A DNA stretch of 64,000 nt from assembly GCA_965200315.1 (NCBI GenBank), contig OZ241362.1:3392001-3456000 (forward strand), read 5' to 3'. Source of the DNA: Candidatus Latescibacterota bacterium (GTDB taxonomy: Bacteria; Latescibacterota; UBA2968; UBA8231). The position numbers and the translations under genes are program-made. Position 1 is the first letter of the stretch, and each line of letters starts with the position of its first letter. The notes under the pieces were generated by a model. It was not told the DNA's origin, ran no database searches, and saw nothing but the letters and a program-made list of their open reading frames with translations. Positions 3,456 through 33,308 of this stretch are shown here, in pieces.

Positions 3456-5630
<2,175 letters not shown>

Positions 5631-5714
5631 TCTCAGCGGGTGCTCGTAACGGAGGAGTATCTCTTTGAGTACTAGCACGGGTGAAGTACCGGATTATTCT
5701 CGGCGTTTATTGAG

Positions 5715-7208
5715 ATGCTGACACAAATCGATTATGCCGTAATTGCGGTCTACGCGGCGTTGATGACTTGGATCGGAATTATAGCTAAGCGGAAGTCCAG
5801 CAATGTGGACCAGTATTTCGCGGCCGGGCACGGGTTACCCTGGTGGATGGCGGCCATCTCGCACCACGTGTCCGGGTACAGCGCGGTCGTGTTTGTGGGT
5901 TTTGCCGGTCGTGCAGCGGTCACGGGATTCAGCATGTGGACCTTGTTTTCGCTTGGGGTGTTCGTAGCCCTGGTGCTTGGATGCCTCATCTGGGCACCGA
6001 GATGGTCTAGGTTGAAAGTTCTGACGCCAGTGGAATATCTGGAAGTGCGCTACGGCAATTCCGTGCGGGGTCTCATTGCGGTTTCCGGTATCCTCATCAA
6101 GTTCATCGATCTCGGCATCAAGCTGTTCGCGATCTCCATTGTCGTCCACGTGGTTACCGGCTGGGAGGTGGTGCCTATTATCGTTGTTTCGGGTCTGATC
6201 ACCATCGCCTACGTATTCATTGGCGGGCTGTGGGCTACCGTACTTACGGACTTGGTGCAGTTCGTGGTACAGCTCGTCATGAGTCTGGCCGTGCTGTTCA
6301 TCGCGCTCGATATGGTGGGGGGCTGGAACGCGATGTGGGACAGCTTGCCACAGGAGCGCGCCGGCTTTTTCAACGCGGCCGAGGGGATCAGCGCGAGCTT
6401 CTGGCTGGTCTATGTGGTTGTGATCATTCTCAGCTACAACGGGGGCACTTGGGGACTGGCGCAGCGATTCGTGTCGGTGGAAAAGCCGCGGGATGCCCAG
6501 AAGGCGGCGCTCTTGTCGGCGATTCTCTACTTGTTCTATCCCATCGTCATTTTCCTTCCCGCTTGGGCCGCGCCGCTGCTGATGCCCGAACACTTCGATC
6601 CGGTCACATTTCAACCCAGCGTCGGCTTCGATCTGGATCAGACATACATCCTTGTAACGCAAAAAATACTGTCGACTCTGGCGCCAGGGCTGATCGGACT
6701 GCTGGTATGCTCCATGTTTGCCGCGACCATGTCCATGATCGACAGCGATATAAATGCCCTTGCTGCGGTGTTCACCAAGGATTTCTACCAGCGCAACTTC
6801 AAGCGCGAGATCGACGACAAGGCGTTGTTCAAGGCGGGAATGATCACGACGGCGATTTTCGGTATCGCGGTTCTGGTGACCGCAATTGTGATCTCCCAGA
6901 GTCAGGGCATGAACAAGGTGTTTTCTTTGACCGTGAAACTGTTCGGCGGCCTCCTGTCGCCCATCGCGATTCCATTGATGCTCGGGATGATATGGAAACG
7001 CCCGACCGCGCGGGGCGCAATTTTGTCGTTTACCGGCGGCGTGATCACCTATTTCATCATGATTCAGTACACCGACAGGTTTGAGATTTACACCGGGGTG
7101 GAAATCCTAGTCGTGCTGGCCATCTACTTTGGCGAGGGGTATATGGGCAAGCGCAGCCTTGAGAAGGAGGCGGAGGTAACGGCGTTGTTCGATAAAATTC
7201 GGACCTGA
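5715..7208 (+). CDS. sodium:solute symporter family transporter
   Basis: DQYFAAGHGLPWW, TPVEYLEVRYG, GGLWATVLTD, AATMSMIDSDINA; many TM segments. Confidence 0.92.
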   Translation: MLTQIDYAVIAVYAALMTWIGIIAKRKSSNVDQYFAAGHGLPWWMAAISHHVSGYSAVVFVGFAGRAAVTGFSMWTLFSLGVFVALVLGCLIWAPRWSRLKVLTPVEYLEVRYGNSVRGLIAVSGILIKFIDLGIKLFAISIVVHVVTGWEVVPIIVVSGLITIAYVFIGGLWATVLTDLVQFVVQLVMSLAVLFIALDMVGGWNAMWDSLPQERAGFFNAAEGISASFWLVYVVVIILSYNGGTWGLAQRFVSVEKPRDAQKAALLSAILYLFYPIVIFLPAWAAPLLMPEHFDPVTFQPSVGFDLDQTYILVTQKILSTLAPGLIGLLVCSMFAATMSMIDSDINALAAVFTKDFYQRNFKREIDDKALFKAGMITTAIFGIAVLVTAIVISQSQGMNKVFSLTVKLFGGLLSPIAIPLMLGMIWKRPTARGAILSFTGGVITYFIMIQYTDRFEIYTGVEILVVLAIYFGEGYMGKRSLEKEAEVTALFDKIRT

Positions 7209-7329
7209 TATAGCAACCCGACATGATTTGAACGATTCGAGCGGTGGCTAGTCTTGTGCCTCCTATTCTGCGTACGTCTATCTGCGTCCATCTGCGGATT
7301 ATCTGGGAAATGATGGGGGCATGACCCTG
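7209..7329 (-). repeat. ~120 bp dispersed MITE-like element, copy 1
   Basis: Reverse complement shares ATCCGCAGATGGACGCAGATAGAC, CCGCTCGAATCGTTCAAATCAT and terminal GCTATA with 30140-30256. Confidence 0.75.
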
Positions 7330-7341
7330 AGAAAGAAGGAG

Positions 7342-7677
7342 CAATATGGCTTGGGCTTCGCCCGCATCCATCGCCACGGGCTTCTCGCACAGGACATGCT
7401 ATCCCGCCTTTAGGCACATCACCGCGAGGTTGCGATGGCTCGAGGGCAGCGTGGCGATGCTCACGACATCGGGCTTGGTCTTTTCGAGCATCTCTTCCGC
7501 GTCTTGAAATCCGGCGACTGCAAACTGCTTGCCGGCCCGCGACACCCGTTCCGGCTCCAGATCGCATACGCCCACGAGCGAGCAGCCCCCGGCATCTGCT
7601 GCCTCCCGGTAGGCCGGCAGATGTTGTGAGGTGGCGATCTGGCCGCATCCGATTACGGCGACTTTCGTCGGACTCAT
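7342..7677 (-). pseudogene. Gfo/Idh/MocA oxidoreductase N-terminal remnant
   Basis: KVAVIGCGQIA Rossmann start. In-frame TAG at 7399-7401 immediately before HVLCEKPVAMD; homology ends at AQAIL. Confidence 0.85.
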
Positions 7678-7693
7678 GCGCTCCTTCCTCCGA

Positions 7694-9637
7694 TCACGCC
7701 AGTTCAATGCGCTTGATCACGCGTTGCAAAACCCACTCGCCCATGATCGTATCTTTTTGCGCGAGATACATGGTCTGAACAGGCGGAATCAACGCATCCC
7801 AATTGGGTTCAAAAGGGCCATAACAAACCGGGTTATCCAGCGCAGCTTGCAAAGCGGGGATCAACGCCTTTAGCTGCGCTAGGATCTCTCGGCGATAAAA
7901 AGACAAATTTGCACCCGCGCGAAACCGCGCCCAGAGCAGATCACTTTGCAACGCACGTTCCAATGCAGGCATCCCTTCTGTACGGTTGTTTTGGCAAAGC
8001 AAGTCAGCCGCCGCTAGACTCACACTGATCGATTCATCCTGAACAAGCGAACCGATCTTTTGCAGAACTGTATCCTCCGCCTCATACGACATCAACCCGG
8101 TAATCGCCCAATAGCGCACAGCACTATCGGAATCATCAAGTCGGTCAATTAACTTAGCTTTGCCAGCTTCACCTAATCGAGAGAAATCGGCTGTCTCCAG
8201 AACATGTGCATAGTTTTCGCAATGTGCGCCCACTTCGTAATTCACACCATCATACTCAGTCGCTCGCACGATCATCTCAGTTTCATCAATCAGCCCCAGA
8301 TCCCGCGTCTCAATCATCCACTCAAACAACTCCGTTCGTAACTGATCTTTGAGACCGCTGTATTTAGGATCGCCAGCCAGATTGGCAATTTCTTCCGGGT
8401 CGTTCTCAACATCATACAGTTCTTCAAATGGCTTCTTTGCCTGCCAGACCAAATATGCAGAATACGCCTCGGGAATCGGCAGCAAAAACACACCATCGGG
8501 ATCGTGTACTTTCAACTCTCCGGGCAAACACGACGTATCCCAGAAATCATGCTCAGGCGTCCCTTCTTTCGGGGGTGTCTCAAAGAAACCACCATCTGGC
8601 CAAAACGAAGCATAGGGGCGATGAGGCAAAAAGTTGCGAATGTAGCGGTATTTCTCACTCCGAATCGTGCGAATCATCTCATTGCAATTGTCCAAGCGAT
8701 CTCGCGCCCCACAGACAAAATCGCGATACGGTTCCTTTTGCTTACCCAGAAAGGCTCGTCCTTGAAAATGTTGGGGAATCTGCACATCCATCATGCTCAA
8801 AACAGACGCGCCCATATCCATCGTCATCACCAGATCGTCCACCACCGTTCCCGGCGGTCCTATTGCCAGATGTTGGTATTTGTCGGGAAAGCGAATAATC
8901 AACGGCACCCGCAAACCATCTTCGTAAACGTGCGTCTTGCCCCTCGGATAACCTGTACCGTGATCAGACCAAAAGAAAACAATCGTATTATCCAGCACAC
9001 CTGCGGACCCCAATTTTTCTATCACTTCACCCACGTGCCGATCAACCTGCATCAAGCCATCGTAAAAAAGAGCGGTGCGCTCTCTGGCGAGTGGTGTATC
9101 AGGCATAAAAATGGGAAGTGGTGCCTCGTCAGGATCGTGCAATTCTTCATCCGTTAACAAACTCGATCGCTGGTCTCGTGCTTGCTCTGGTGTTAGCTTA
9201 AATACACTAGCGTGGGACTCACCAAAACTATACACTGCAAAAAAAGGCTTCTCATCTGCTTGTTCCAAAAGCACATCATTGCTCTGATACGCCGCCCATT
9301 CGTCAGGGTCGATGTCTGTGTTCAAATCAGTATTGATCGCCGAGCAATTATACCCTTCTGCCATCAGATAGTGCGTCAACATTTGCACAAAGTCAGGACG
9401 TCTGGCAAAACTTCGATGATGATGCGTACCCACAGTAGTCTGATGCATTCCGGTAAAAATACTTGTGCGTGCAGGTGAACAAATAGGCCCACAGGCAAAA
9501 GCGTTCGCATAGCGAATGCCTTCTTCAGATAGCGTATCGAGATGAGGAGTTGTGGCATAATCATCGCCATAACACCCCACATTCCTCGCACTCACATCGT
9601 GTGTATTTATCCAGACAAAATTCGGTCGTTTCGCCAA
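7694..9637 (-). CDS. sulfatase with C-terminal HEAT-like repeats
   Basis: RPNFVWI, CSPAR formylglycine motif, SDHG, ELYDVENDPEE; tail LDDSDSAVRYWA. Visibly more AT-rich than the flanks. Confidence 0.92.
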   Translation of the reverse strand: MAKRPNFVWINTHDVSARNVGCYGDDYATTPHLDTLSEEGIRYANAFACGPICSPARTSIFTGMHQTTVGTHHHRSFARRPDFVQMLTHYLMAEGYNCSAINTDLNTDIDPDEWAAYQSNDVLLEQADEKPFFAVYSFGESHASVFKLTPEQARDQRSSLLTDEELHDPDEAPLPIFMPDTPLARERTALFYDGLMQVDRHVGEVIEKLGSAGVLDNTIVFFWSDHGTGYPRGKTHVYEDGLRVPLIIRFPDKYQHLAIGPPGTVVDDLVMTMDMGASVLSMMDVQIPQHFQGRAFLGKQKEPYRDFVCGARDRLDNCNEMIRTIRSEKYRYIRNFLPHRPYASFWPDGGFFETPPKEGTPEHDFWDTSCLPGELKVHDPDGVFLLPIPEAYSAYLVWQAKKPFEELYDVENDPEEIANLAGDPKYSGLKDQLRTELFEWMIETRDLGLIDETEMIVRATEYDGVNYEVGAHCENYAHVLETADFSRLGEAGKAKLIDRLDDSDSAVRYWAITGLMSYEAEDTVLQKIGSLVQDESISVSLAAADLLCQNNRTEGMPALERALQSDLLWARFRAGANLSFYRREILAQLKALIPALQAALDNPVCYGPFEPNWDALIPPVQTMYLAQKDTIMGEWVLQRVIKRIELA

Positions 9638-10001
9638 ATTAATTCCTCGCTAACCTCTTTTAGGAAATCCACACTGTTTTATGTTCAAAAAAAGGCTCCA
9701 GACCCATCTCGCCGTAGCGCCGGCCAATGCCGCTCTGTAGCGCCTGTGGTGCTTCTTGGTCGGGCGCTTTAAGCACGGCCGATAAAAAAGTGGCCAGCAT
9801 CGGCCCATTGAAGGGGACAAAGATCGCAACGACGCCCAGCTTTCGTTGACGCACTGGAGAATCAATCATAGCCCTACCAGCAGGCATCGCCTAAGTCCGG
9901 CTGTCGGCTATAGGATATTCTAGTATACTATGGCCCTGCAACGCGGGCAATCAGCAGACCGCTGTTCCTCGTGACCTCTTCCCCCAACGCAGAGACCAAA
10001 C

Positions 10002-13000
10002 ATGCAGTTCATAATCGACGTGCATCTGCACTCGCGTTTTGCGCGAGCGACGAGCCGCGACCTCAACCCTTCCAACTTGCACAAGTGGTCGGCGCTCAAG
10101 GGCGTTGACGTAGTTGGAACGGGCGACTACACGCATCCCGAGTGGTTCGCCGAACTATCTGAGCAACTCGAACCAGCCGAAGAGGGGCTGTACCAGCTCG
10201 AAACCAGTCGCTGCGCCGCCGTGGAACAAGAGCTGCCCGAACGCTGCCGCCGCGCCGTGCGCTTCATGCTTTCGGTAGAAATCAGCACCATCTACAAGAA
10301 GGGCGACAAAACCCGCAAGGTCCACCACGTCGTCATCCTGCCCACCCTCGAATCCGCGGATCGACTCAACCGTCGCCTCGGTGCCATTGGCAACTTGCAC
10401 TCCGACGGCCGGCCCATCTTGGGGCTGGACAGCCGCGACCTTTTAGAGATTTGTCTCGAAGCCGACGAGAATGTGCTCTTCATCCCGGCCCATATATGGA
10501 CGCCGCACTTCGCCGCGTTGGGTGCCTCGTCGGGCTTTGACTCTCTGGAGGAATGCTACGAGGATTTGCTGCCGCACATCTTCGCAGTAGAGACCGGCCT
10601 ATCCTCGGACCCGCCGATGAACTGGCGGCTGTCGGCCCTCGATCGCTATGCGATTATATCCAATTCCGACGCCCATTCCCCGCAAAAGCTGGCCCGCGAG
10701 GCCACGTGTTTTGACACGGAGTGCTCGTATCCGGGCATCTATTCTGCGCTCAAAGATCGCGACCCAGCGCGCTTTTTGGGCACCTTGGAGTTCTATCCCG
10801 AAGAAGGCAAGTATCACTACGACGGCCACCGCAAGTGCGCGGTGTGCTACAAGCCAGCGCAAACACTGGCCGCCGAGGGAATCTGTCCGGTGTGCGGACG
10901 CAAGCTGACGGTGGGGGTTTTACACCGGGTGGAAAAGCTAGCCGACCGCCCGGAGGGATTTCGCCCGGAGGTGGCCCCGCCCTACGAGTACCTGATCCCA
11001 CTCGACGAAGTGATCGGCGCGGCGGTTGGCGTTGGCCCGAAGTCCAAGAAAGTCCGCGCTGTGTACGATCAACTCTTGGCCGAGAGCGGCCCGGAACTCG
11101 AAGTATTGCGCCGCGCTGGACTTGAAGCGATTGAAAGCTGCGCCGGGCCGTTGGTGGCCGAGAGCGTGCGCCGGATGCGCTGCGGCGAGGTGGACATCTA
11201 CCCGGGCCACGATGGGGAGTACGGCGTAATCAGCGTGTTTAGCGAGGAGGAGCGGGCACGCTTGAAAGGGCAAGGTGCGCTGTTCGACTTGGGACCGGCG
11301 ATCGCGAAGACGGCTGAGGAAGTCCACGTTCCAGCGGTACAGTCGTCAAGGCCCGCTAGCACCACACAAGCGGAGCGGGATGTGGACTCGCCCGACGCCG
11401 CACAGCAGCAAGTCGAAGAGGCCGAAGGAGGGCCTTTAGTGGTCGTGGCCGGACCGGGGTCGGGTAAGACCCGGGTGCTGACGCGGCGCATTGCGCGGCT
11501 GGTCGCAAGCGGCGTGGACCCGGGGCAGATCATGGCCATTACCTTCACCCGGCGGGCGGCTGGACAGATGCGGCAGCGGCTGAGCGCATTGTTGGACGGT
11601 GGGCTGGGCGCGATGCAGGTGGGGACCTTCCACCGCTTGGCGTTGTCGCTCTTGCGGGAGTTGGGCTGCGAGCCAAAGCTAGTGCTCGACGAGGTGGAAG
11701 CGCGCCGGTTGCTGGAAGGGGCGCTGGTAGATGCCGGTTTGTCGGGGTCAGTTACCGCCGCCAGCCAAGCCATCTCGCTGGCCAAGGCCGCCGCGCGAGG
11801 GCCGGATGAAATCGCCGAGGAGTGGCGGCCGCATTACGATGCCTATCAGGCGGCCCTACGGGCGTCTGGGGCCTGCGACTACGACGACATTCTCTTGGAT
11901 TTGCTGCGCCTCTTAGAAGCGGATGCAGCCGTGCGGGAACAGGTGCGAGCGCGTTTCCCCTATCTACTGATAGACGAGTTCCAAGACCTCAACGCCGCGC
12001 AGTATAGGTTGGTCCTGCAGTTGGCGGGTGCGGGCGCGGGCCTGATGGCCATCGGCGACCCTGATCAAGCGATCTACAGCTTTCGCGGCGCTTCGCCCGA
12101 CCATTTCGTTCACTTGCGCGAGCTTTTCTCGGATACGCTACTCTTTCATCTAGGCGCGAATTACCGCTCTCAGGCGCATATTGTCGAGGCCGCCACTGCC
12201 GTCGTCGGCCACAATCCGGAGCGCGAGGCCATTGAACTCGCAGCCATGCGTCCGGGTAAGGAAAGAATCCGCCTAATCGAGGTGCAGAGCGAGACGGCCG
12301 AGGGCATTGCGGTGGTGCGGGAGATTGCCCGCATGGTCGGTGGCACCGATATGGTGCAGACCGATGCCGGCTCAGAAGGCACGCGCAGTTTCGCCGACTT
12401 TGCCGTGCTCTTCCGCACTGGCCGACAGGGCCAAGTGCTGGAGGAGTGCTTCCGCAAGGAGGGCCTGCCCTACCGGCTCGTCGGCCAGAAGGGCTTTCTG
12501 CAAGCACCGGCTGTGCGGGCCGCGTTGGCGTTTGCCCGCTACACCTCAATCTCGCAAGAGGATGTGCGCCGCTGGCAGGCACTAGAGGCGATGGGCGCGG
12601 AGCCGCACATTTTGCGCCAAGTGCGGCGAGGGGAGCTGTCGGCGTCGGCGCAGGCCTGGGTCGAGGCGCTAGAGGCGCGGATAGCAGAGTACAGGCAATG
12701 GGCTGCTCAGGAGGGGGCGGGTGCTTGGGTGCGCCGCTGGCAGGCTGAGTTCGGCGACCCGGAGGACGAGGACTTGGAGCACTTGGCCCGAGTAGCGGAT
12801 GCGGCCGAAACGCTAGCGCAGCTACTGGAGACCGTGCTCTTAGGCGCGGAGGCCGACTACGAGGAGCGGGGCGGCCCTCAAGGCCCGGAGGCCGTCGCGC
12901 TGATGACCTTGCACGCGGCCAAGGGCTTGGAATTTCCAGTGGTATTTATCTGCGGGGTGGAGGACGGACTTATCCCCTTCCGCGAGCGAGACGCCGACCT

Positions 13001-27691: not shown

Positions 27692-27894
27692 AAGTTGGCG
27701 AGGAGGCAATGCTCGGGATCGAACTTCCAGAATCTCAACCACTGTTTTTGGGGACGTAGAGTCTGGCTTTTGATTCAGGGACGAATAAACCGATTGCTTC
27801 GCGAAACATGTATTACTCCCTTGTTTTATCCGACCAACTCGGCCGACGTGCAATGGCAATTCCCCCGTCGGCGGATCGCCCGATTCGGGAAGAG

Positions 27895-29232
27895 TCAAGG
27901 CCCTCGAATTCGTCGGATCCACAGGCGAATTTGCGCCGGGGTGGGCCAGCGAACATGCTCGGGAAGCGCGGTGAGTCGCTCCTCTACTTGTGCGGCGGAT
28001 AAGGTGGCCAAATCCGCCAGCGAACGAATGCCGGCTTTGGTCAGCAAATTGCCGTATTCCACCCCAATGCCTTGGTGCAGGTATAGTTCGATGAGATCAC
28101 GGGTGGCTCGCGTACGTTCGCGGCCCAATCCCCCTTCCATTTGCCGCCAAATTTCCGCCGACCTTCCAGCTTCCAAATCTGTCAGATAGACGATGCCCTC
28201 GTCCTGCAAAAAAGAGCGGGCAGCCGAATCCAGACTATCAACTTTGGTCAAGCGCGGCTTCACCGAGCCAACGTTCAAGTAGATGTAGTGGTTGACCGTC
28301 AGGGCGAAAGCCGTGGCCAAAAGGACGATGACGAACGCATTCCAGACCTTGGTCGGCGCGGGCCGCTGGTCCCGGTGTGCTCCCAATGGCGGCGCCAACC
28401 TGTACCAGACCAACAGACGATAGACCAGAGCGCATTCTACGGCAAAGGGAGGGAAGCCCAAAAAGCCGGCCAGCGGCATTTCAAAGAGTTTCAATTCTTC
28501 AAAAAAGGGCACTGTGTAGATCCACTTAACTTGGGCCCAGTAGTTGAAGAATTCCCACAGGCCACCGGCGATGAATCCGGCCAGCAACTGGCGGGTCAGC
28601 AGAGCGTAGTCGCCGCGTGCCAATTGATGCAGCAAGCTGTCGGGCAGGCGGCGGTATTCGACAGGGGCTAGGAGCAGGATAAAGGCGAGCCAAGTGAGCG
28701 GGAAAAAGAAGCGCGGCCACACAAGGACTAGTGCTAGCCCAATCAGGCCGGCTATTTGCAGGAGGGTTAGACGACGGGGAGTTAGGGGCCAACGACGGCC
28801 CTGCCAACCGGCAGCCACGCCGCGCAGACCCAAGTAGTACTCCAACCACAGCAGGCCGGGGAAAACAGTGGCAAAGGAGAAGACGGCGTTTAGCGTCTGC
28901 CAGACAGGGTGGTCGAGGACGAAGATATAATACCAGTTTTGCAAGCGGAAATTGATCAACTCAAAGGCGTACCACCCCACCGCGGACCAAAAAAGAATCA
29001 GCAAAGAAGCCGGGCCGCAGCGGGCGATAAGCGAGCGTCCTTCTCGCCACTCAATGAGTCGGTCTAGGGTCCAAATGATGCCGTACCAAGCGCAGAGATA
29101 AAACAAGGTGGTCACAGGTTCTACCCGGCGCAGCATAAGGACGAAGGAAATCCCTATAGATAGGGGCCCTAATAGAAGCAGTAGCGCGGACTGGAAACGG
29201 CGCGGGTCCAGCGGCGCGGAACAGATGGTCAT
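27895..29232 (-). CDS. integral membrane protein with a C-terminal HhH/DUF4332-like domain
   Basis: Many TM helices, FELINFRLQNWYY, LWEFFNYW, EMPLAGFLGFPPF; tail GIGVEYGNLLTKAGIRSL. Confidence 0.7.
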   Translation of the reverse strand: MTICSAPLDPRRFQSALLLLLGPLSIGISFVLMLRRVEPVTTLFYLCAWYGIIWTLDRLIEWREGRSLIARCGPASLLILFWSAVGWYAFELINFRLQNWYYIFVLDHPVWQTLNAVFSFATVFPGLLWLEYYLGLRGVAAGWQGRRWPLTPRRLTLLQIAGLIGLALVLVWPRFFFPLTWLAFILLLAPVEYRRLPDSLLHQLARGDYALLTRQLLAGFIAGGLWEFFNYWAQVKWIYTVPFFEELKLFEMPLAGFLGFPPFAVECALVYRLLVWYRLAPPLGAHRDQRPAPTKVWNAFVIVLLATAFALTVNHYIYLNVGSVKPRLTKVDSLDSAARSFLQDEGIVYLTDLEAGRSAEIWRQMEGGLGRERTRATRDLIELYLHQGIGVEYGNLLTKAGIRSLADLATLSAAQVEERLTALPEHVRWPTPAQIRLWIRRIRGP

Positions 29233-30140
29233 TGAGAAGGGTCGAGTTCCAAGACCGCGGCCAAGCTGTCGCCTTGGTGGACGCGGTTGAAGACCCGCAG
29301 ACACAGGATCAAGCCCGCTTGGGTCGATACCACTTCCTCTCGTCGCTGCCCCAGATGATCGACCACCGTGCCGATTACATCGCCCGGTTGCACGGGTGCT
29401 TTCAATGTTACTTGAGGCTCAAAATAACCGGCAAAGGGCGCTGGGTAATTGAGCTGTACGTGCCCGGAGTTGTCGCGGTCGTCTTCTACTGTGTACTCGA
29501 TGCTCAGGGGCGGCAGGGTGCGGTCGATCATGTCCAGTTCGGCCAATACGTTCAAACAGCCCTCGAAATAAGCCTCCGCGCCTTGGGGGTCGCACGTGCC
29601 GCCGCCCATCCACTCGGCGTAGATGGCTGGTACGTTGGCGTCGCGGGCCACCGAGAGCATGCGTCCGTCGAGCCGGGCCGAAGTGCCCCAGATGATGGGC
29701 ATATTCAGTGCGCGGGCCATGCGCCGTTGCACGTTGAGGACGGCTTTATCGGGATGCAGAGTGTACCCCACGGTAGGGTAGAATTCCATGACTATCCCGC
29801 CGCTGTGCAGGTCGATCAGATAGTCGGCCCGGCGGATTTCCTCACTGACGGCGTGGGCCGTGCGCTCGGTGATCGAGCCGTCGGGCCGGCCCGGGCAGGT
29901 GCGGGCCAAGTCCAGTTCGTCTTCGGCCGTGCGCTGGCCGCGCCAATAAGCGGCTTCGTTGACTACCGGGATGGCGGTGAGGCGGCCGCGCAAAGCCGCT
30001 GGATCGAGGTGGTCCAGCAGGCGGCGGATGGCCGCCATAGATTCAAACTCGTCGCCGTGGACGCCGCCTAGGATCAGGAGGTTGGGACCTTTTTGGGTGC
30101 CTTCTATTACTTGTCGTGGCAGGGTGATTGTCGGAGCCAT
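29229..30140 (-). CDS. succinylglutamate desuccinylase/aspartoacylase (M14) family
   Basis: GGVHGDE, DLAR, IDLHSGG. Confidence 0.88.
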   Translation of the reverse strand: MAPTITLPRQVIEGTQKGPNLLILGGVHGDEFESMAAIRRLLDHLDPAALRGRLTAIPVVNEAAYWRGQRTAEDELDLARTCPGRPDGSITERTAHAVSEEIRRADYLIDLHSGGIVMEFYPTVGYTLHPDKAVLNVQRRMARALNMPIIWGTSARLDGRMLSVARDANVPAIYAEWMGGGTCDPQGAEAYFEGCLNVLAELDMIDRTLPPLSIEYTVEDDRDNSGHVQLNYPAPFAGYFEPQVTLKAPVQPGDVIGTVVDHLGQRREEVVSTQAGLILCLRVFNRVHQGDSLAAVLELDPSQ

Positions 30141-30256
30141 AGGGCAATCCTACATCATGTACAAGTTGATCCGCAGATGGACGCAGATAGACTCAGAATA
30201 GTATTCACAGGACGATCCGCCGCTCGAATCGTTCAAATCATTCCGCACTGCTATAG
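30140..30256 (+). repeat. ~120 bp dispersed MITE-like element, copy 2
   Basis: Homologous to 7209-7329 in the opposite orientation; ends in CTATAG. Confidence 0.75.
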
Positions 30257-30274
30257 TTGGCTGTCTCTCAACTG

Positions 30275-31228
30275 TCATCTCGGTCGGTAGGGGCTAGTAT
30301 CAATGCCGGGTAGGGTATGCTCCAAAAGGTCTAGGGTTTGGCTCGTGAAGTACGGGTGTCCGGGTTCGGGCCAGCCGAATAGGCCGCGCACTCGGGGTGT
30401 GGTGGCCGTGAAAAACGGCAGCATGTGTTCGCGTTCTCCGTAGATGAAGGGATTGGCGAACCGGGTCCAGCGATCGTTGTCGCGGCGGCATAAAGACAAA
30501 GTCCAAAAGGCGCGTTGCGTGCGCTTGTTGGCGAAGGGTTGCGCCGCGTGGACTAGGTACGACGAGTAGAAGAGGGCCGCGCCACGCCGGCCAGTGGAGG
30601 GGAGCGGAGCGGCTAGTTCGGTGGCTTGGCGCAGGTCTTTGAAGGACCCACCCGCGGCGTTGTCTTGGGCAAGCGCTCGCACAAAAGCGGGACCAGCTAC
30701 TTTGTGCGAGCCGGGGATGACCAGCATGGGGGCACCGTCGTTCTCGACATCGTGCAGATACACCCCCGAATTGACGTAGTCGAAACGGCCTGTTTGGTCG
30801 TAGGGCGGCAGTAGGCAATTGGTGTAGTGGTCAATATGGTAGCCCTCCCAAGGGTTGTCGGGATGACGCCTGTCGGTAGGCCCCGAGCGCATAAAGAGGT
30901 GGGCATTGCAGTAGCTGGCTTTTGCCCCCAAGCATTGTTCAAAAATGTCGAGGTAGGTCTCGTTTTCTATCAGCCGATCCAGAGCTTTTGCGCCCACTGG
31001 AAATTGCGAGCGGCCCTCGGAGTGATCGTGCGTGGTGGTGAAGCCGTCCGAGACCCCAGAGGCGTCGCCGCGGTCGCAATCGGCCAGCCATTGCTCGAAG
31101 GATTGGCCGTAGAAAATCCGTTCCATCGCTGCTAGGGCGGCATCCATCTCATCGGCAGTGAACAGGTCGGGGACGATGATATAGCCGTCGCGGTGGAATT
31201 GGTCGAGTTGGGCTGGTGTTAGGCTCAT
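30275..31228 (-). CDS. PhyH family dioxygenase
   Basis: FHRDGYI, YHID, VIPGSH, LVHAA. Confidence 0.88.
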   Translation of the reverse strand: MSLTPAQLDQFHRDGYIIVPDLFTADEMDAALAAMERIFYGQSFEQWLADCDRGDASGVSDGFTTTHDHSEGRSQFPVGAKALDRLIENETYLDIFEQCLGAKASYCNAHLFMRSGPTDRRHPDNPWEGYHIDHYTNCLLPPYDQTGRFDYVNSGVYLHDVENDGAPMLVIPGSHKVAGPAFVRALAQDNAAGGSFKDLRQATELAAPLPSTGRRGAALFYSSYLVHAAQPFANKRTQRAFWTLSLCRRDNDRWTRFANPFIYGEREHMLPFFTATTPRVRGLFGWPEPGHPYFTSQTLDLLEHTLPGIDTSPYRPR

Positions 31229-31340
31229 AAGGTCTCGATATAGTATAGGTTGAGGTTGGTTTTCAGGCGGTTGGTGGTAAGATACCGCACTCGACTAGCG
31301 AGTCAACTAAAGGAGGAAGCGAGCTTTTCCCCTTCGCCTT

Positions 31341-31368
31341 TGAACCTGTATTTTCCGGGCGGCGTCTT
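31341..31368 (+). promoter_or_regulatory. putative ECF sigma promoter
   Basis: TGAACC-N16-CGTC(TT), about 20 bp upstream of the ATG at 31387. Confidence 0.6.
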
Positions 31369-31386
31369 TATTTGCAGAGAGCCTCA

Positions 31387-32370
31387 ATGCAAATACCAGA
31401 CCCACAACTCATAGCGCAAATAAAAAACCGCGATGCACGTGCGTTCCAACAGTTGTTTGAGCGCTATCGGGAGCAGGTCCACCAACTGATGGAACTAGAT
31501 TTTGATGGCGATCAAATCGAGGTATTTTTGCCCCTCACTGAGGAAGCCCAGACCGAAGCCGAGACCGCGCTGTCGGTGGGCGGACACATACAGCGCGATG
31601 CGGATATATGGCACTACGTGGCCGACAACTACCACGGCATGATATGGGGCTTGGCGCAGTTGTGCCGCACGGAGGAAGGCCGCGCCGAAGTGGAGCGGCT
31701 GACCGGAGTGGCTGTGGATGGCAGCCGGCTGTTTGCCAAGCACGACCTCAACCGCTTGCTAGCTCAGGTGTTGCAACGCGAGGGTTTGCAGCGAGCGCTG
31801 GAGGTGCTCGACCAGCTAACGCGGCGCGGCTTTGAGGTCTGCAAGCAGTCGGGGGCCTCCTTCAATCCCTTTCTCGGTTCGAGCAAGGAGTGGCCTGAGC
31901 AACCCGAGGAGGCCGATTGGGACGAGTGGCAAATGTACAGCGACGAGTTAGTGGCAGCTTTCTACCATCAGGCCGATTTCGACGACAACGACTTGGGCCC
32001 CTTGGCCCTGTTGTCGCTGTCGGGCGCACGGGGGAACCAACAGCAGTTGATCCAATACGTGGGCGGCGGTCTGCTCTATCGGGAAGATGGCAGTCTATTC
32101 GCCCAGCGCGGTTGTCGGCGCGATGGCCTGTCGGTGGAAGAGATCAAAGTGCGGGCACCGGGTGCCTTATGGGGGCTAGCCGCCAATCAGCATTGGACCG
32201 AGGCGCGGGAAGCGGCCCAACAGCCCGTCCGTGCCGATTATCACGTTTTGGGCCGGGCAGTGCGGGCGGCCCAGCGCGGCGTGGTCTTTGCCCGGGCGGC
32301 CCAGCGCGGCGAGGTCGAGCCTTTGACCAGCCTGTTCAGCCGGCTCTTTGCAGGGCTGCCGGCGGACTAG
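31387..32370 (+). CDS. ECF sigma N-terminal segment fused to a condensed RNA polymerase beta'-like polypeptide (possibly internally deleted)
   Basis: DPQLIAQIKNRDARAFQQLFERYREQV, then LDFDGDQIEVFLPLTEEAQTEA, LDQLTRRGFEVCKQSGASF, SGARGNQQQLIQYVG, DGLSVEE and FARAAQRGEVEPL, collinear with RpoC motifs. Confidence 0.8.
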   Translation: MQIPDPQLIAQIKNRDARAFQQLFERYREQVHQLMELDFDGDQIEVFLPLTEEAQTEAETALSVGGHIQRDADIWHYVADNYHGMIWGLAQLCRTEEGRAEVERLTGVAVDGSRLFAKHDLNRLLAQVLQREGLQRALEVLDQLTRRGFEVCKQSGASFNPFLGSSKEWPEQPEEADWDEWQMYSDELVAAFYHQADFDDNDLGPLALLSLSGARGNQQQLIQYVGGGLLYREDGSLFAQRGCRRDGLSVEEIKVRAPGALWGLAANQHWTEAREAAQQPVRADYHVLGRAVRAAQRGVVFARAAQRGEVEPLTSLFSRLFAGLPAD

Positions 32371-32383
32371 GCCTCGATCAATT

Positions 32384-33232
32384 TTACTGCACCACCGCTT
32401 CTTCACCCAGATGCTCGCAAATCCACGCTCTCAGCGGCACGTCTTCTTCTTGCGGCGAAGTGTAGCCGTGCCCGCCGCTCGGGCCGGCACCTAATAGCTG
32501 CCGCCGGATTGGGTCGCAGCGGTCCAGCAGGTGCTCCACCGTCATGTCGTCGCGTGGCCGCAACCAGCGGTAGCTATAGCCGTAAAACAGCACCCTGCGC
32601 GCATCGGGCGAAAAGTTGTGGCCGGCTGCATGCCAGAGCCGCCGGTCAAAAAACACCGCGTCGCCCGCCGCCACTTGAATCGGCACTGCGCCTGCTGGGT
32701 CTAAGTCCTCGTCCGCTGGCATCTCGATCTTGTTTTTCAGGTGCGAGCCGGGTACCGCATGGAAGTTGCCGCGGTGGGTCTCGGTGCAGTCCGTGAGAAA
32801 ATACGCCACCTTGAGCGAGACCCTCGGCCGGGGCTCAGTCTCCATGTCGATGTTGAGTCGCCCGCTGTCTTGGTGCCAGCCCAGCCGCTTGCGTTTGGGC
32901 ACGACGCCGTCTAAAGGCGGAGTAACGATCAAGTGCGAGTGGTAGAGCTGAATGTGCCAGCCCAGAATCCCGAAGACTTTGGCGAATGTCTTTGGCCAGT
33001 CGAGCAGCTCCAGAAAGAGGTCGTCTTTGCCGATGAAGTCGAAAAAGTTGTGCATCTGGTGCTTTTCCAGCCCCTTTTGCCGCCGGTGTTCGGCGTCGAG
33101 GCGATCGACGATGGGGATGAGCTGTGCTACCAAATTTTGCGGCAACACATCGCGGACGATGAGAAAGCCGTCCTCTGCAAATTGGCGGCGCTCCTCCTCG
33201 GTCAACATATATTGCAGGCAAGTTGCATCCAT
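32384..33232 (-). CDS. PhyH family dioxygenase
   Basis: FAEDGFL, GWHQD, VPGSH, LWHAA. Confidence 0.9.
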   Translation of the reverse strand: MDATCLQYMLTEEERRQFAEDGFLIVRDVLPQNLVAQLIPIVDRLDAEHRRQKGLEKHQMHNFFDFIGKDDLFLELLDWPKTFAKVFGILGWHIQLYHSHLIVTPPLDGVVPKRKRLGWHQDSGRLNIDMETEPRPRVSLKVAYFLTDCTETHRGNFHAVPGSHLKNKIEMPADEDLDPAGAVPIQVAAGDAVFFDRRLWHAAGHNFSPDARRVLFYGYSYRWLRPRDDMTVEHLLDRCDPIRRQLLGAGPSGGHGYTSPQEEDVPLRAWICEHLGEEAVVQ

Positions 33233-33308
33233 AGAAAACCTCCAAGCGGCTTGCCATCGCGCCCCCAATACTGAGGGCGGACTGCAAGTCGGCAAAGTTG
33301 TAGGCGGC

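Follow-up and report, generated by a model that had tools for sequence, protein, structure and literature searches.

An open reading frame (ORF) in a 64,000-nucleotide stretch of a Candidatus Latescibacterota bacterium genome (contig OZ241362.1, positions 3,392,001 to 3,456,000; hereafter the window, with positions numbered from its first base) begins like an extracytoplasmic function (ECF) sigma factor and continues like a miniature β′ subunit of RNA polymerase (RNAP). We find that this ORF is a deletion chimera and most likely a recent pseudogene (probability about 0.9), in which the first codons of a sigma gene have been joined to the last ≈295 codons of the gene that follows it in relatives. 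The intact parents are a separate ECF sigma factor and a ≈1050-residue single-chain β::β′ protein, and together they form a module that is widespread and apparently undescribed. The homology, the architecture, the pairing of the two genes, the promoter motif, and the deletion with its presence in sequencing reads are demonstrated below.

The window ORF and its two parent genes

The ORF spans 31372–32370 on the forward strand and encodes 332 residues counted from its first TTG; the ATG at 31387, the same start as in homologous sigma factors, gives 327. Its similarity to β′ is weak but well above chance. The NCBIfam rpoC model is matched over three stretches (E = 4.1e-11), with a score to TIGR02386 of 41.4 bits against a curated cut-off of 963.5 that is not reached, and Pfam recovers the tail of RNA_pol_Rpb1_2 only (residues 33–67, E = 1.3e-4, 22.6 bits, below the 25.3 cut-off). 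A phmmer search of the PDB returns 87 distinct chains at E ≤ 10, and all 60 among the matches listed are β′; the best match (4.5e-8) comprises two collinear stretches, residues 24–106 on β′ 511–597 and residues 189–270, the latter on β′ 739–822 of 1i6v_D, the region F/bridge-helix stretch. An AlphaFold2 model based on 46 family sequences has a mean predicted local distance difference test score (pLDDT) of 80.9; residues 55–332 fold confidently on their own, and pLDDT falls below 50 at residues 1–44 and 46–50, DFDGD included. VIA-align places model residues 12–332 on E. coli β′ 433–1358 (Z 14.5, root-mean-square deviation (rmsd) 4.9, 301 residues aligned) and residues 12–286 on β′ 433–801 (Z 14.5, rmsd 3.2, 257 aligned, 24% identity), a range that we take to contain the bridge helix, and all 50 among the structural matches listed are β′ chains. 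Assignments of the bridge helix here, and of the clamp helices below, come from secondary structure, alignments and the usual residue numbering. A preliminary description of the window had read ordered RpoC landmarks and a strongly compressed β′ into this frame, with all three Mg-binding Asp kept and no trigger loop or jaw, and had called for a structural comparison with RpoC. That comparison bears the description out. The DFDGD motif and an SGARG motif near 32020 can be read off the sequence, the funnel or region F and the bridge helix follow the active-site loop in both the structural and the phmmer alignments, the C-terminal region is reached, and a β′ span of ≈925 residues is compressed to ≈320, with no room for a trigger loop or jaw.

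The ECF-like start was likewise recognized correctly. The first ≈37 residues are 87–91% identical to the N-termini of separate ECF sigma factors of 185–199 residues (P0026, P0027), and NCBIfam sigma models match weakly over residues 4–39 (1.7e-3); no Pfam sigma domain, region 2 or 4, is found in the ORF at E ≤ 10. From residue ≈30 to 332, the ORF is instead 83–90% identical to the C-terminal part of longer proteins (P0001–P0005, P0148). Both parents are intact in relatives, where a 199-residue sigma gene is followed, through an ATGA overlap, by a ≈1050-residue single-chain β::β′ gene; in one related Latescibacterota locus (L007), for example, the sigma gene (starting at 7872 or 7950 and ending at 8549) overlaps the 1051-residue gene at 8546–11701 by 4 nt. 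An intact sigma (P0149) contains Sigma70_r2 (3.4e-15) and r4_2 (9.2e-13), and an intact long relative (P0148) contains Rpb2_3 (residues 146–209), Rpb2_6 (339–454) and Rpb1_2 (735–784).

Comparison with another related locus (L008) by blastn pairs window 27738–31482 with 4278–8042 and window 31482–33245 with 10813–12580. The window is collinear with its relatives on both sides of a single gap, and comparison of the flanks of five relatives sets the junction given in Table 1, close to the position near 31478 at which the preliminary description had suspected a lost middle. The deletion took the sigma gene from codon ≈33 to its end, together with the initial ≈756 codons of the polymerase-like gene, and left a remnant that covers only residues 726–1051 of P0148. 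The two genes lie in different frames, so the deletion happens to join them in frame. The account that we favor starts from a two-gene operon of an autoregulated 199-residue ECF sigma and a ≈1050-residue β::β′ gene with a 4-nt ATGA overlap; one 2771-bp deletion then fused, in frame by chance, 33 sigma residues to the part of the β′ half that runs from the DFDGD loop through the funnel and bridge helix to the C-terminal block.

Public sequencing runs contain the same junction. At least part of a 1.2-kb stretch around it is present in 20 of 23 listed runs, and seven of the 23 contain half or more of the stretch's sampled words. Four runs, including X2, X4, X7 and X21, were aligned to the stretch. 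X2 yields a 39.7-kb contig with no differences over the whole stretch and could itself be the source material. Two RNA libraries supply contigs that cross the junction and have single-nucleotide polymorphisms (SNPs) of their own, X4 at 31275–32150 and X7 at 31409–31589 and 31409–31492; in X21, which belongs to another study, bin 31470–31526 is covered by raw Illumina DNA reads at a depth of ≈8. No joint or loose end at 31484 is reported in the aligned runs. The read support that the preliminary description had asked for is thus present; since contigs and raw reads of several runs span the junction, the deletion is real, and it occurs in a natural sponge-metagenome-associated lineage sampled in more than one study.

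What the remnant can no longer do follows from what was removed. According to PMC2919709, eight residues are invariant in two-barrel polymerases: a β Asp, two β Lys/Arg, a β′ Arg and Pro, and three β′ Asp. The window ORF keeps three of the eight, the three Asp, and the others lie in deleted DNA, so that the window protein cannot be the self-promoter-recognizing polymerase that had been suggested. The segment before DFDGD is deleted, and the ORF does not contain a complete double-psi β-barrel with NADFDGD; the ≈33-residue sigma remnant has neither a DNA-binding nor a core-binding domain. With the β barrel, most of the β′ barrel and nearly all of sigma gone, we infer that the product is neither polymerase nor sigma and has lost its function. 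At 327–332 residues it is a truncated descendant of proteins of ≈1000–1100 residues with Rpb2_3, Rpb2_6 and Rpb1_2.

Several features suggest that decay has begun. The window encodes Arg (CGC, 32275–32277) where 46 of 47 aligned sequences have Pro, and the X7 and X21 strains retain the Pro codon. Among the aligned strains the ORF contains 15 single-base variants, nine nonsynonymous and six synonymous, and an in-frame variant with an extra deletion of 369 nt (31589 to 31959) is seen in one 60-nt X7 contig and two X21 reads. The DFDGD region, as noted, is modeled as disordered. In addition, one RNA-library contig encodes Val at a conserved Gly of SGARG.

Other observations weigh against a dead gene. 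The fusion is in frame and open for 295 codons, the deletion-bearing lineage recurs in several samples and studies, and two RNA libraries contain the region, which is not proof of transcription, as DNA carry-over is possible. The median ratio of nonsynonymous to synonymous substitution rates (dN/dS) between the remnant and 17 intact relatives is 0.11, against 0.14 for intact genes (133 pairs). Because this ratio is not elevated, either the deletion is recent relative to species divergence (dS 0.31–0.48) or the remnant is still constrained; a recent deletion is favored, and the helical β′ fragment may retain some residual role. A fragment that is still made and has acquired a new role, e.g., as a small regulator or decoy, would account for these same observations, as well as for the intact ribosome-binding region and promoter motif ahead of the fusion and the confident folding of residues 55–332 alone. 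We nonetheless regard such a role as improbable, given that promoters of this type are used by the very sigma factor that the deletion destroyed, that the substitutions at the invariant Pro and, in another strain, at an SGARG Gly, the excess of nonsynonymous variants and the further internal deletion all run counter to it, and that related genomes have lost the module outright.

Less probable still is a native, functional sigma-fused mini-polymerase, whether the 327-residue protein itself or a family of such fusions. A sigma-like N-terminus and β′ landmarks do share one open frame with all three Asp, but only 33 sigma residues are present, the β half with its two basic residues and its Asp is gone together with the β′ barrel before DFDGD, and the DFDGD region is not confidently modeled. 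Relatives also speak against the single-polypeptide sigma-(β)-β′ family that had been proposed: in 29 of 32 related loci a gene of its own, immediately ahead of the long gene, encodes sigma, the 120 long proteins listed are all too short to include a sigma as well, and none of 150 listed cluster representatives matches the window ORF before residue 30. The two parts occur in one protein only through this deletion, which makes the ORF a deletion chimera, though one whose parent genes are a conserved pair. A misassembly of the long-read metagenome-assembled genome, hiding an intact locus, is just as remote: the genome, assembled from a metagenome as one contig, has an estimated contamination of 7.8%, and X2 with its identical contig could represent the same material, but the X4 and X7 contigs with their own SNPs and the X21 reads cross the junction as well.

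The deletion chimera is one of several losses within the genus. Among 24 other genus genomes, 17 encode a full-length protein, one has another truncation, and six yield nothing at E ≤ 1e-60; the six comprise five genomes that are 88–95% complete and one that is 58% complete. The 726–1051 remnant is seen only in the window genome among the genus genomes compared. The other truncation (genome G001, locus L004; 8549–8770 and 8840–11713) is independent, with residues 93–1051 matched, the first ≈92 codons gone, and 74 sigma residues left. L018 has a long gene (8549–11692) without a sigma, and in L017 the sigma (7781–8567) is split into two ORFs. In the sister family the gene is found in 12 of 12 genomes, at ≈47% identity. 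Repeated loss in one genus (the window, L004, the L018 sigma, and the six genomes with no match) marks the module as accessory.

The surroundings of the remnant are ordinary, with PhyH dioxygenases, Gfo/Idh/MocA oxidoreductases and an AstE/AspA-type enzyme, and no mobile-element genes are seen near it. The remnant sits between two divergent PhyH-family dioxygenase genes, both on the minus strand (30275–31228 and 32384–33295), and two Gfo/Idh/MocA oxidoreductase genes lie further downstream. In L006, L007 and L020, a gene for a 785-residue protein with F5/8 type C and CHU_C type IX secretion signal domains (11773–14130 in L007) separates the polymerase-like gene from the PhyH gene downstream; the window and most relatives lack it.

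Table 1. Features of the module remnant, in window coordinates
Feature	Position	Strand	Basis
ECF-type promoter motif TGAACC-N13-CGGCGTC	31341..31366	+	Motif shared upstream of sigma genes; intact in the window
ECF sigma gene remnant: start codon and ≈32 codons, ending before or at the start of region 2	31387..31484	+	Identity to P0026/P0027; collinearity to 31482–31484
Deletion junction; 2771 bp missing (L008 8045–10815), microhomology ≤ 1 nt	31484..31485	.	blastn collinearity; flanks of five relatives
3′ part of the single-chain β::β′ gene: last ≈295 codons and stop, in frame	31485..32370	+	83–90% identity; structural match
DFDGD, Mg-binding Asp triad, without its barrel	31498..31512	+	Sequence; upstream strands and β half deleted
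Long helix at the bridge-helix position (residues 255–283 of the 332-residue ORF)	32134..32220	+	AlphaFold2 secondary structure; VIA-align
C-terminal conserved block VFARAA..G..PL....RLF.G, equivalent to the β′ C-terminal region	32245..32349	+	Family conservation; model reaches E. coli β′ 1358

The intact single-chain β::β′ family

Long single-chain relatives with Rpb2 and Rpb1 domains, as the preliminary description expected, are numerous. A search among longer proteins finds 138 relatives at E ≤ 1e-3, of which 120 were listed; these are 913–1107 residues long and contain Rpb2_6 and Rpb1_2, most of them Rpb2_3 as well. With the window ORF as query, HMMER finds 333 of 1.84 billion cluster representatives at E ≤ 1e-3, 208 at ≤ 1e-10 and 107 at ≤ 1e-30; the full-length representatives (≈980–1101 residues) are matched at their C-terminus, and the match starts at query residue 30 or later in all 150 listed. 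Record labels place the family in Latescibacterota, Poribacteria, Chloroflexota (Anaerolineae, Chloroflexia, Ktedonobacteraceae), Armatimonadota (Capsulimonas) and Gemmatimonadota, and source annotations call its members "hypothetical protein" or "β′ subunit." The window genome has its housekeeping rpoBC elsewhere.

None of the libraries searched, including Pfam, NCBIfam, PADLOC and PHROGs, holds a curated family that covers the intact proteins; P0148 is without a match in PADLOC, and in PHROGs it matches RNAP β families only. None of 63 matching plasmid records and none of 17 matching phage records covers at least 80% of P0148. In IMG/VR, 41 loci match residues ≈160–824 only, at ≈30–58% local identity, and no full-length member is found with these queries. 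Two matching clusters in the ESM Atlas have 73 and 135 members of ≈1006–1026 residues, with Chloroflexota the commonest phylum. Other ESM Atlas clusters combine Rpb2_6 and Rpb1_2 in one chain of 1221–1787 residues, which suggests further single-chain β-β′ families beyond the sigma-linked one.

An AlphaFold2 model of P0148 (46 sequences) is of high confidence, with pLDDT 91.5 and a predicted template modeling score of 0.89. In a Foldseek search, bacterial and plastid β (8ras_C, 1.2e-21) and β′ (9gdo_D, 2.4e-19) rank first, with E from 1e-21 to 1e-18, and viral models score lower (best 1.6e-16). P0148 is bacterial rather than archaeal in NCBIfam, with rpoB at 4e-46 versus archaeal B at 2e-28, and it matches PDB β chains at 1e-44; its score to TIGR02386 is 92.4 bits, and every NCBIfam curated cut-off is missed by far. 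Aligned with the genome's own RpoB, family profile positions 104–296 correspond to the fork and adjacent regions and 306–523 to β 1037–1269, the hybrid-binding barrel through the C-terminus; aligned with its own RpoC, positions 561–748 correspond to β′ 269–492 and 859–959 to β′ 672–781.

These alignments also define what is missing. In the PDB alignment, eight residues stand in place of ≈136 of C. thermocellum β between the ED motif and the GDK barrel, a segment that we take to be the flap. The clamp-helix sequence is recognizable in the alignment to the genome's own β′, as are the YSGRSV and NADFDGDQ blocks, and a 25-residue gap presumably corresponds to the rudder and the start of switch 2. 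In the P0148 model a 29-residue helix (974–1002) is followed by ≈9 residues (1003–1011) and then by the C-terminal helices, a spacing that leaves no trigger loop; positions R1015, A1016, P1022, F1026, A1029, L1038 and R1044 of this C-terminal block are near-invariant in the family. No counterpart is found in the intact proteins for β 1–≈428 (lobes and protrusion), for β′ 1–≈268 (zinc and clamp core), or for the jaw.

Catalytic residues were surveyed in 177 full-length proteins (950–1200 residues) grouped by their identity to P0148. Among the 118 distant members, the β Asp is present in 106, the first Lys in 112, the β′ Arg in 106 and R-x-P in 100, and 115 have the complete Asp triad; the R-x-P count was read directly from the sequences, and 61 of the 118 pass seven of the eight catalytic-residue checks, the aligned proline column being misaligned and failing for all 118. 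Across 51 representatives that share less than 65% identity, 209 positions are at least 90% conserved. That the Asp triad, the first Lys and R-x-P are kept at ≈20% identity to the canonical subunits is hard to explain without catalysis, and, judged from the sequences, the intact protein is probably a nucleotide polymerase in most lineages. Against this, the position of the second "invariant" Lys holds Arg in 79 and Gln in 20 of the 118 distant members, with Lys itself in just four, S-A-Q replaces R-x-P in every one of the 49 proteins closely related to the window's parent, and the intermediate (sister) group retains all three Asp in four of ten proteins. The 49 close relatives otherwise keep the Asp triad, ED, the first Lys and the Arg-for-Lys exchange (49/49). 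This pattern would fit a catalytic erosion in the Latescibacterota branch.

The cognate sigma factor, its promoter and its partner

In our survey of 32 related loci, the sigma gene that lies directly upstream of the long gene is on the same strand in all 29 cases, of which 25 were identified by ORF clustering and four by tblastn; adjacency in one locus (L035) is deduced, as the long gene runs off the contig. In the remaining three loci, sigma is partly deleted, absent, or beyond the contig end. A 4-nt overlap is found at 17 of 26 listed junctions between sigma and the next gene, from crude start calls. The sigma factors form one orthologous group, with 44–49% identity across phyla and a long linker between regions 2 and 4 that contains a conserved W and P. 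No other neighbor is conserved across clades in the 32 loci; those limited to a clade are ordinary enzymes, a two-component fusion, DNA polymerase A, and a DksA/TraR-finger protein (three loci). In L025 (5773–7688), L024 (5370–7315) and L035 (2633–4605), two same-strand genes stand directly upstream of sigma, one encoding 321 residues with a DksA/TraR-type C4 zinc finger (residues 13–44) and the other 323 residues without a Pfam match; the two proteins may serve the module as partners or regulators specific to their clade.

The promoter motif TGAACY-N13-CGGNGTC is found with the same spacing upstream of sigma in ten other distinct upstream regions shown, from all clades, and the loci that have it run from L005 to L034. 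In the window it is intact, ahead of a sigma gene cut to ≈33 codons. The strict pattern has three matches in the window genome, one of them at the module, and one to five in each of ten other genomes, again with one upstream of the module in each. The extra matches number 0–4 per genome, versus 0–4 for reversed-pattern controls and a chance expectation of ≈1.3 per 5.4 Mb at equal base frequencies, and the single extra site that two genomes share falls within a coding region of the opposite strand. As the extra sites are near control level, the only visible specific target of this sigma factor is its own operon, which it would drive from this motif in the intact module.

Clamp helices are the main docking site of sigma region 2 in bacterial RNAP, and the β flap anchors sigma region 4. 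The retained clamp helices lead us to think that the mini-polymerase may well hold its sigma at this site. Complex prediction for sigma (alignment A2) with P0148 300–1051 (A1), from alignments built for this analysis and with no interface specified, gives a median score of 0.34, with a best value of 0.00 among three controls; the runs agree in at least 28% of contacts, with a partner pLDDT of at least 65. In the benchmark for such predictions, 58 of 80 solved complexes and 2 of 110 mismatched pairs attained the mark, and 7 of those solved complexes and both mismatches did so at ≤ 0.60. Since sigma/β′ complexes have already been solved, a pass may reflect what the model learned from them, and the prediction lends weak support; it belongs with the points that count against our reading of the intact module, as do the deletion of the flap in the intact family and the lack of any regulon by the strict promoter pattern in the genomes searched, weaker sites being outside that search. 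That the pair is a promoter-specific minimal holoenzyme is put forward as a possibility, at somewhat less than even odds.

The missing flap, the ordinary ECF promoter and the absence of other targets keep a different class of explanation alive, in which the intact protein is a core-RNAP mimic that sequesters the ECF sigma through its clamp helices, or a sigma-independent enzyme that the sigma regulates through host RNAP. The gene occupies the translationally coupled slot after an ECF sigma, often with the 4-nt overlap, there is no other conserved neighbor as an anti-sigma candidate, the promoter has ordinary ECF geometry, and catalytic residues erode in Latescibacterota clades. Retention of the Asp triad, the first Lys and R-x-P by most of the 118 distant members argues in the other direction, as does the conservation of 209 positions across the diverse representatives, and we consider these explanations unlikely, if well short of negligible. 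In the account that we prefer, the mini-polymerase would be catalytically competent in most lineages and would use its clamp helices to hold the sigma factor encoded beside it.

Relation to known polymerases and significance

Relative to canonical RpoB and RpoC, the family retains in canonical order the β fork (Rpb2_3), the ED motif, the GDK..RHG.KG hybrid-binding barrel and the β C-terminus, followed by the β′ clamp helices, part of switch 2, the NADFDGD barrel, the funnel (SGARG), a bridge-helix-like helix and the C-terminal block; it does so in ≈1050 residues of one chain, whereas the canonical subunits use ≈2600 in two. Full-length β-β′ fusions (NF007172/NF011417, 2839–2890 positions), which P0148 matches at 1.8e-45 and 1.3e-42, have the same order of β then β′. 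Those fusions, however, are the housekeeping subunits, while the present family is a paralogue of ≈37% of their length beside normal rpoB and rpoC.

Closest in plan is Orf6 of the yeast killer plasmid pGKL2 (K2ORF6p), likewise a chain of ≈1000 residues with a β-like and then a β′-like half. Orf6 is described as an Rpb2::Rpb1 fusion of 982 residues that has both barrels and has lost about half of each subunit; it belongs to a eukaryotic virus-like element of poxvirus-like origin and needs Orf7, a small subunit with the β′ C-terminus (PMC2919709, PMC6211774). Orf6 is without most of the clamp and without sigma, and its fusion has been called unique among RNAPs (PMC6211774). Compared by description, the bacterial family differs in keeping the clamp helices and the C-terminal block in one chain and in being paired with an ECF sigma. 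YonO of the B. subtilis prophage SPβ is also a single-chain two-barrel protein without trigger-loop homology; at ≈100 kDa it is reported to be an efficient DNA-dependent RNAP (PMC5467207), from which it follows that a two-barrel enzyme without trigger-loop homology can be efficient. YonO is described as phage-borne, with few catalytic residues in common with multisubunit RNAPs and nearer to eukaryotic RNA-dependent RNA polymerases (PMC2919709, PMC5467207). The present family, by comparison with YonO as given in the papers only, is plainly β/β′-derived, chromosomal and sigma-paired.

The gene pair resembles ECF sigma/anti-sigma operons in its AAC-type −35 and GTC-type −10 elements upstream, its coupled next gene, and a sigma with regions 2 and 4 only, but the coupled partner is RNA-polymerase-like and not a recognizable anti-sigma. 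A term search of the main text of the ECF reclassification paper finds no such ECF context (PMC7826278). Our literature search, in which most matches were judged by abstract, finds no description of a sigma-linked bacterial β::β′ mini-polymerase.

We know of no single-chain two-barrel polymerase of phages or yeast plasmids that uses a sigma factor. We tentatively propose, as something that could be true but is by no means the expected outcome, that the intact module is a self-contained orthogonal minimal transcription system, in which a ≈1050-residue enzyme carries its own ECF sigma on its clamp helices and initiates at TGAACY-N13-CGGNGTC. If so, it would be the smallest known sigma-dependent RNAP holoenzyme, chromosomal and present in at least four phyla by record labels, operating without α, ω, flap, rudder, trigger loop or jaw, and the window copy would be a freshly broken example. 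The window copy also carries a caution, as an in-frame deletion chimera can mimic an exotic domain fusion. Should the protein instead prove to imitate the core and titrate its sigma, it would represent an anti-sigma of a new type; as a minimal transcription system, the module would allow the minimum of the multisubunit enzyme that sigma-dependent initiation needs to be probed directly.

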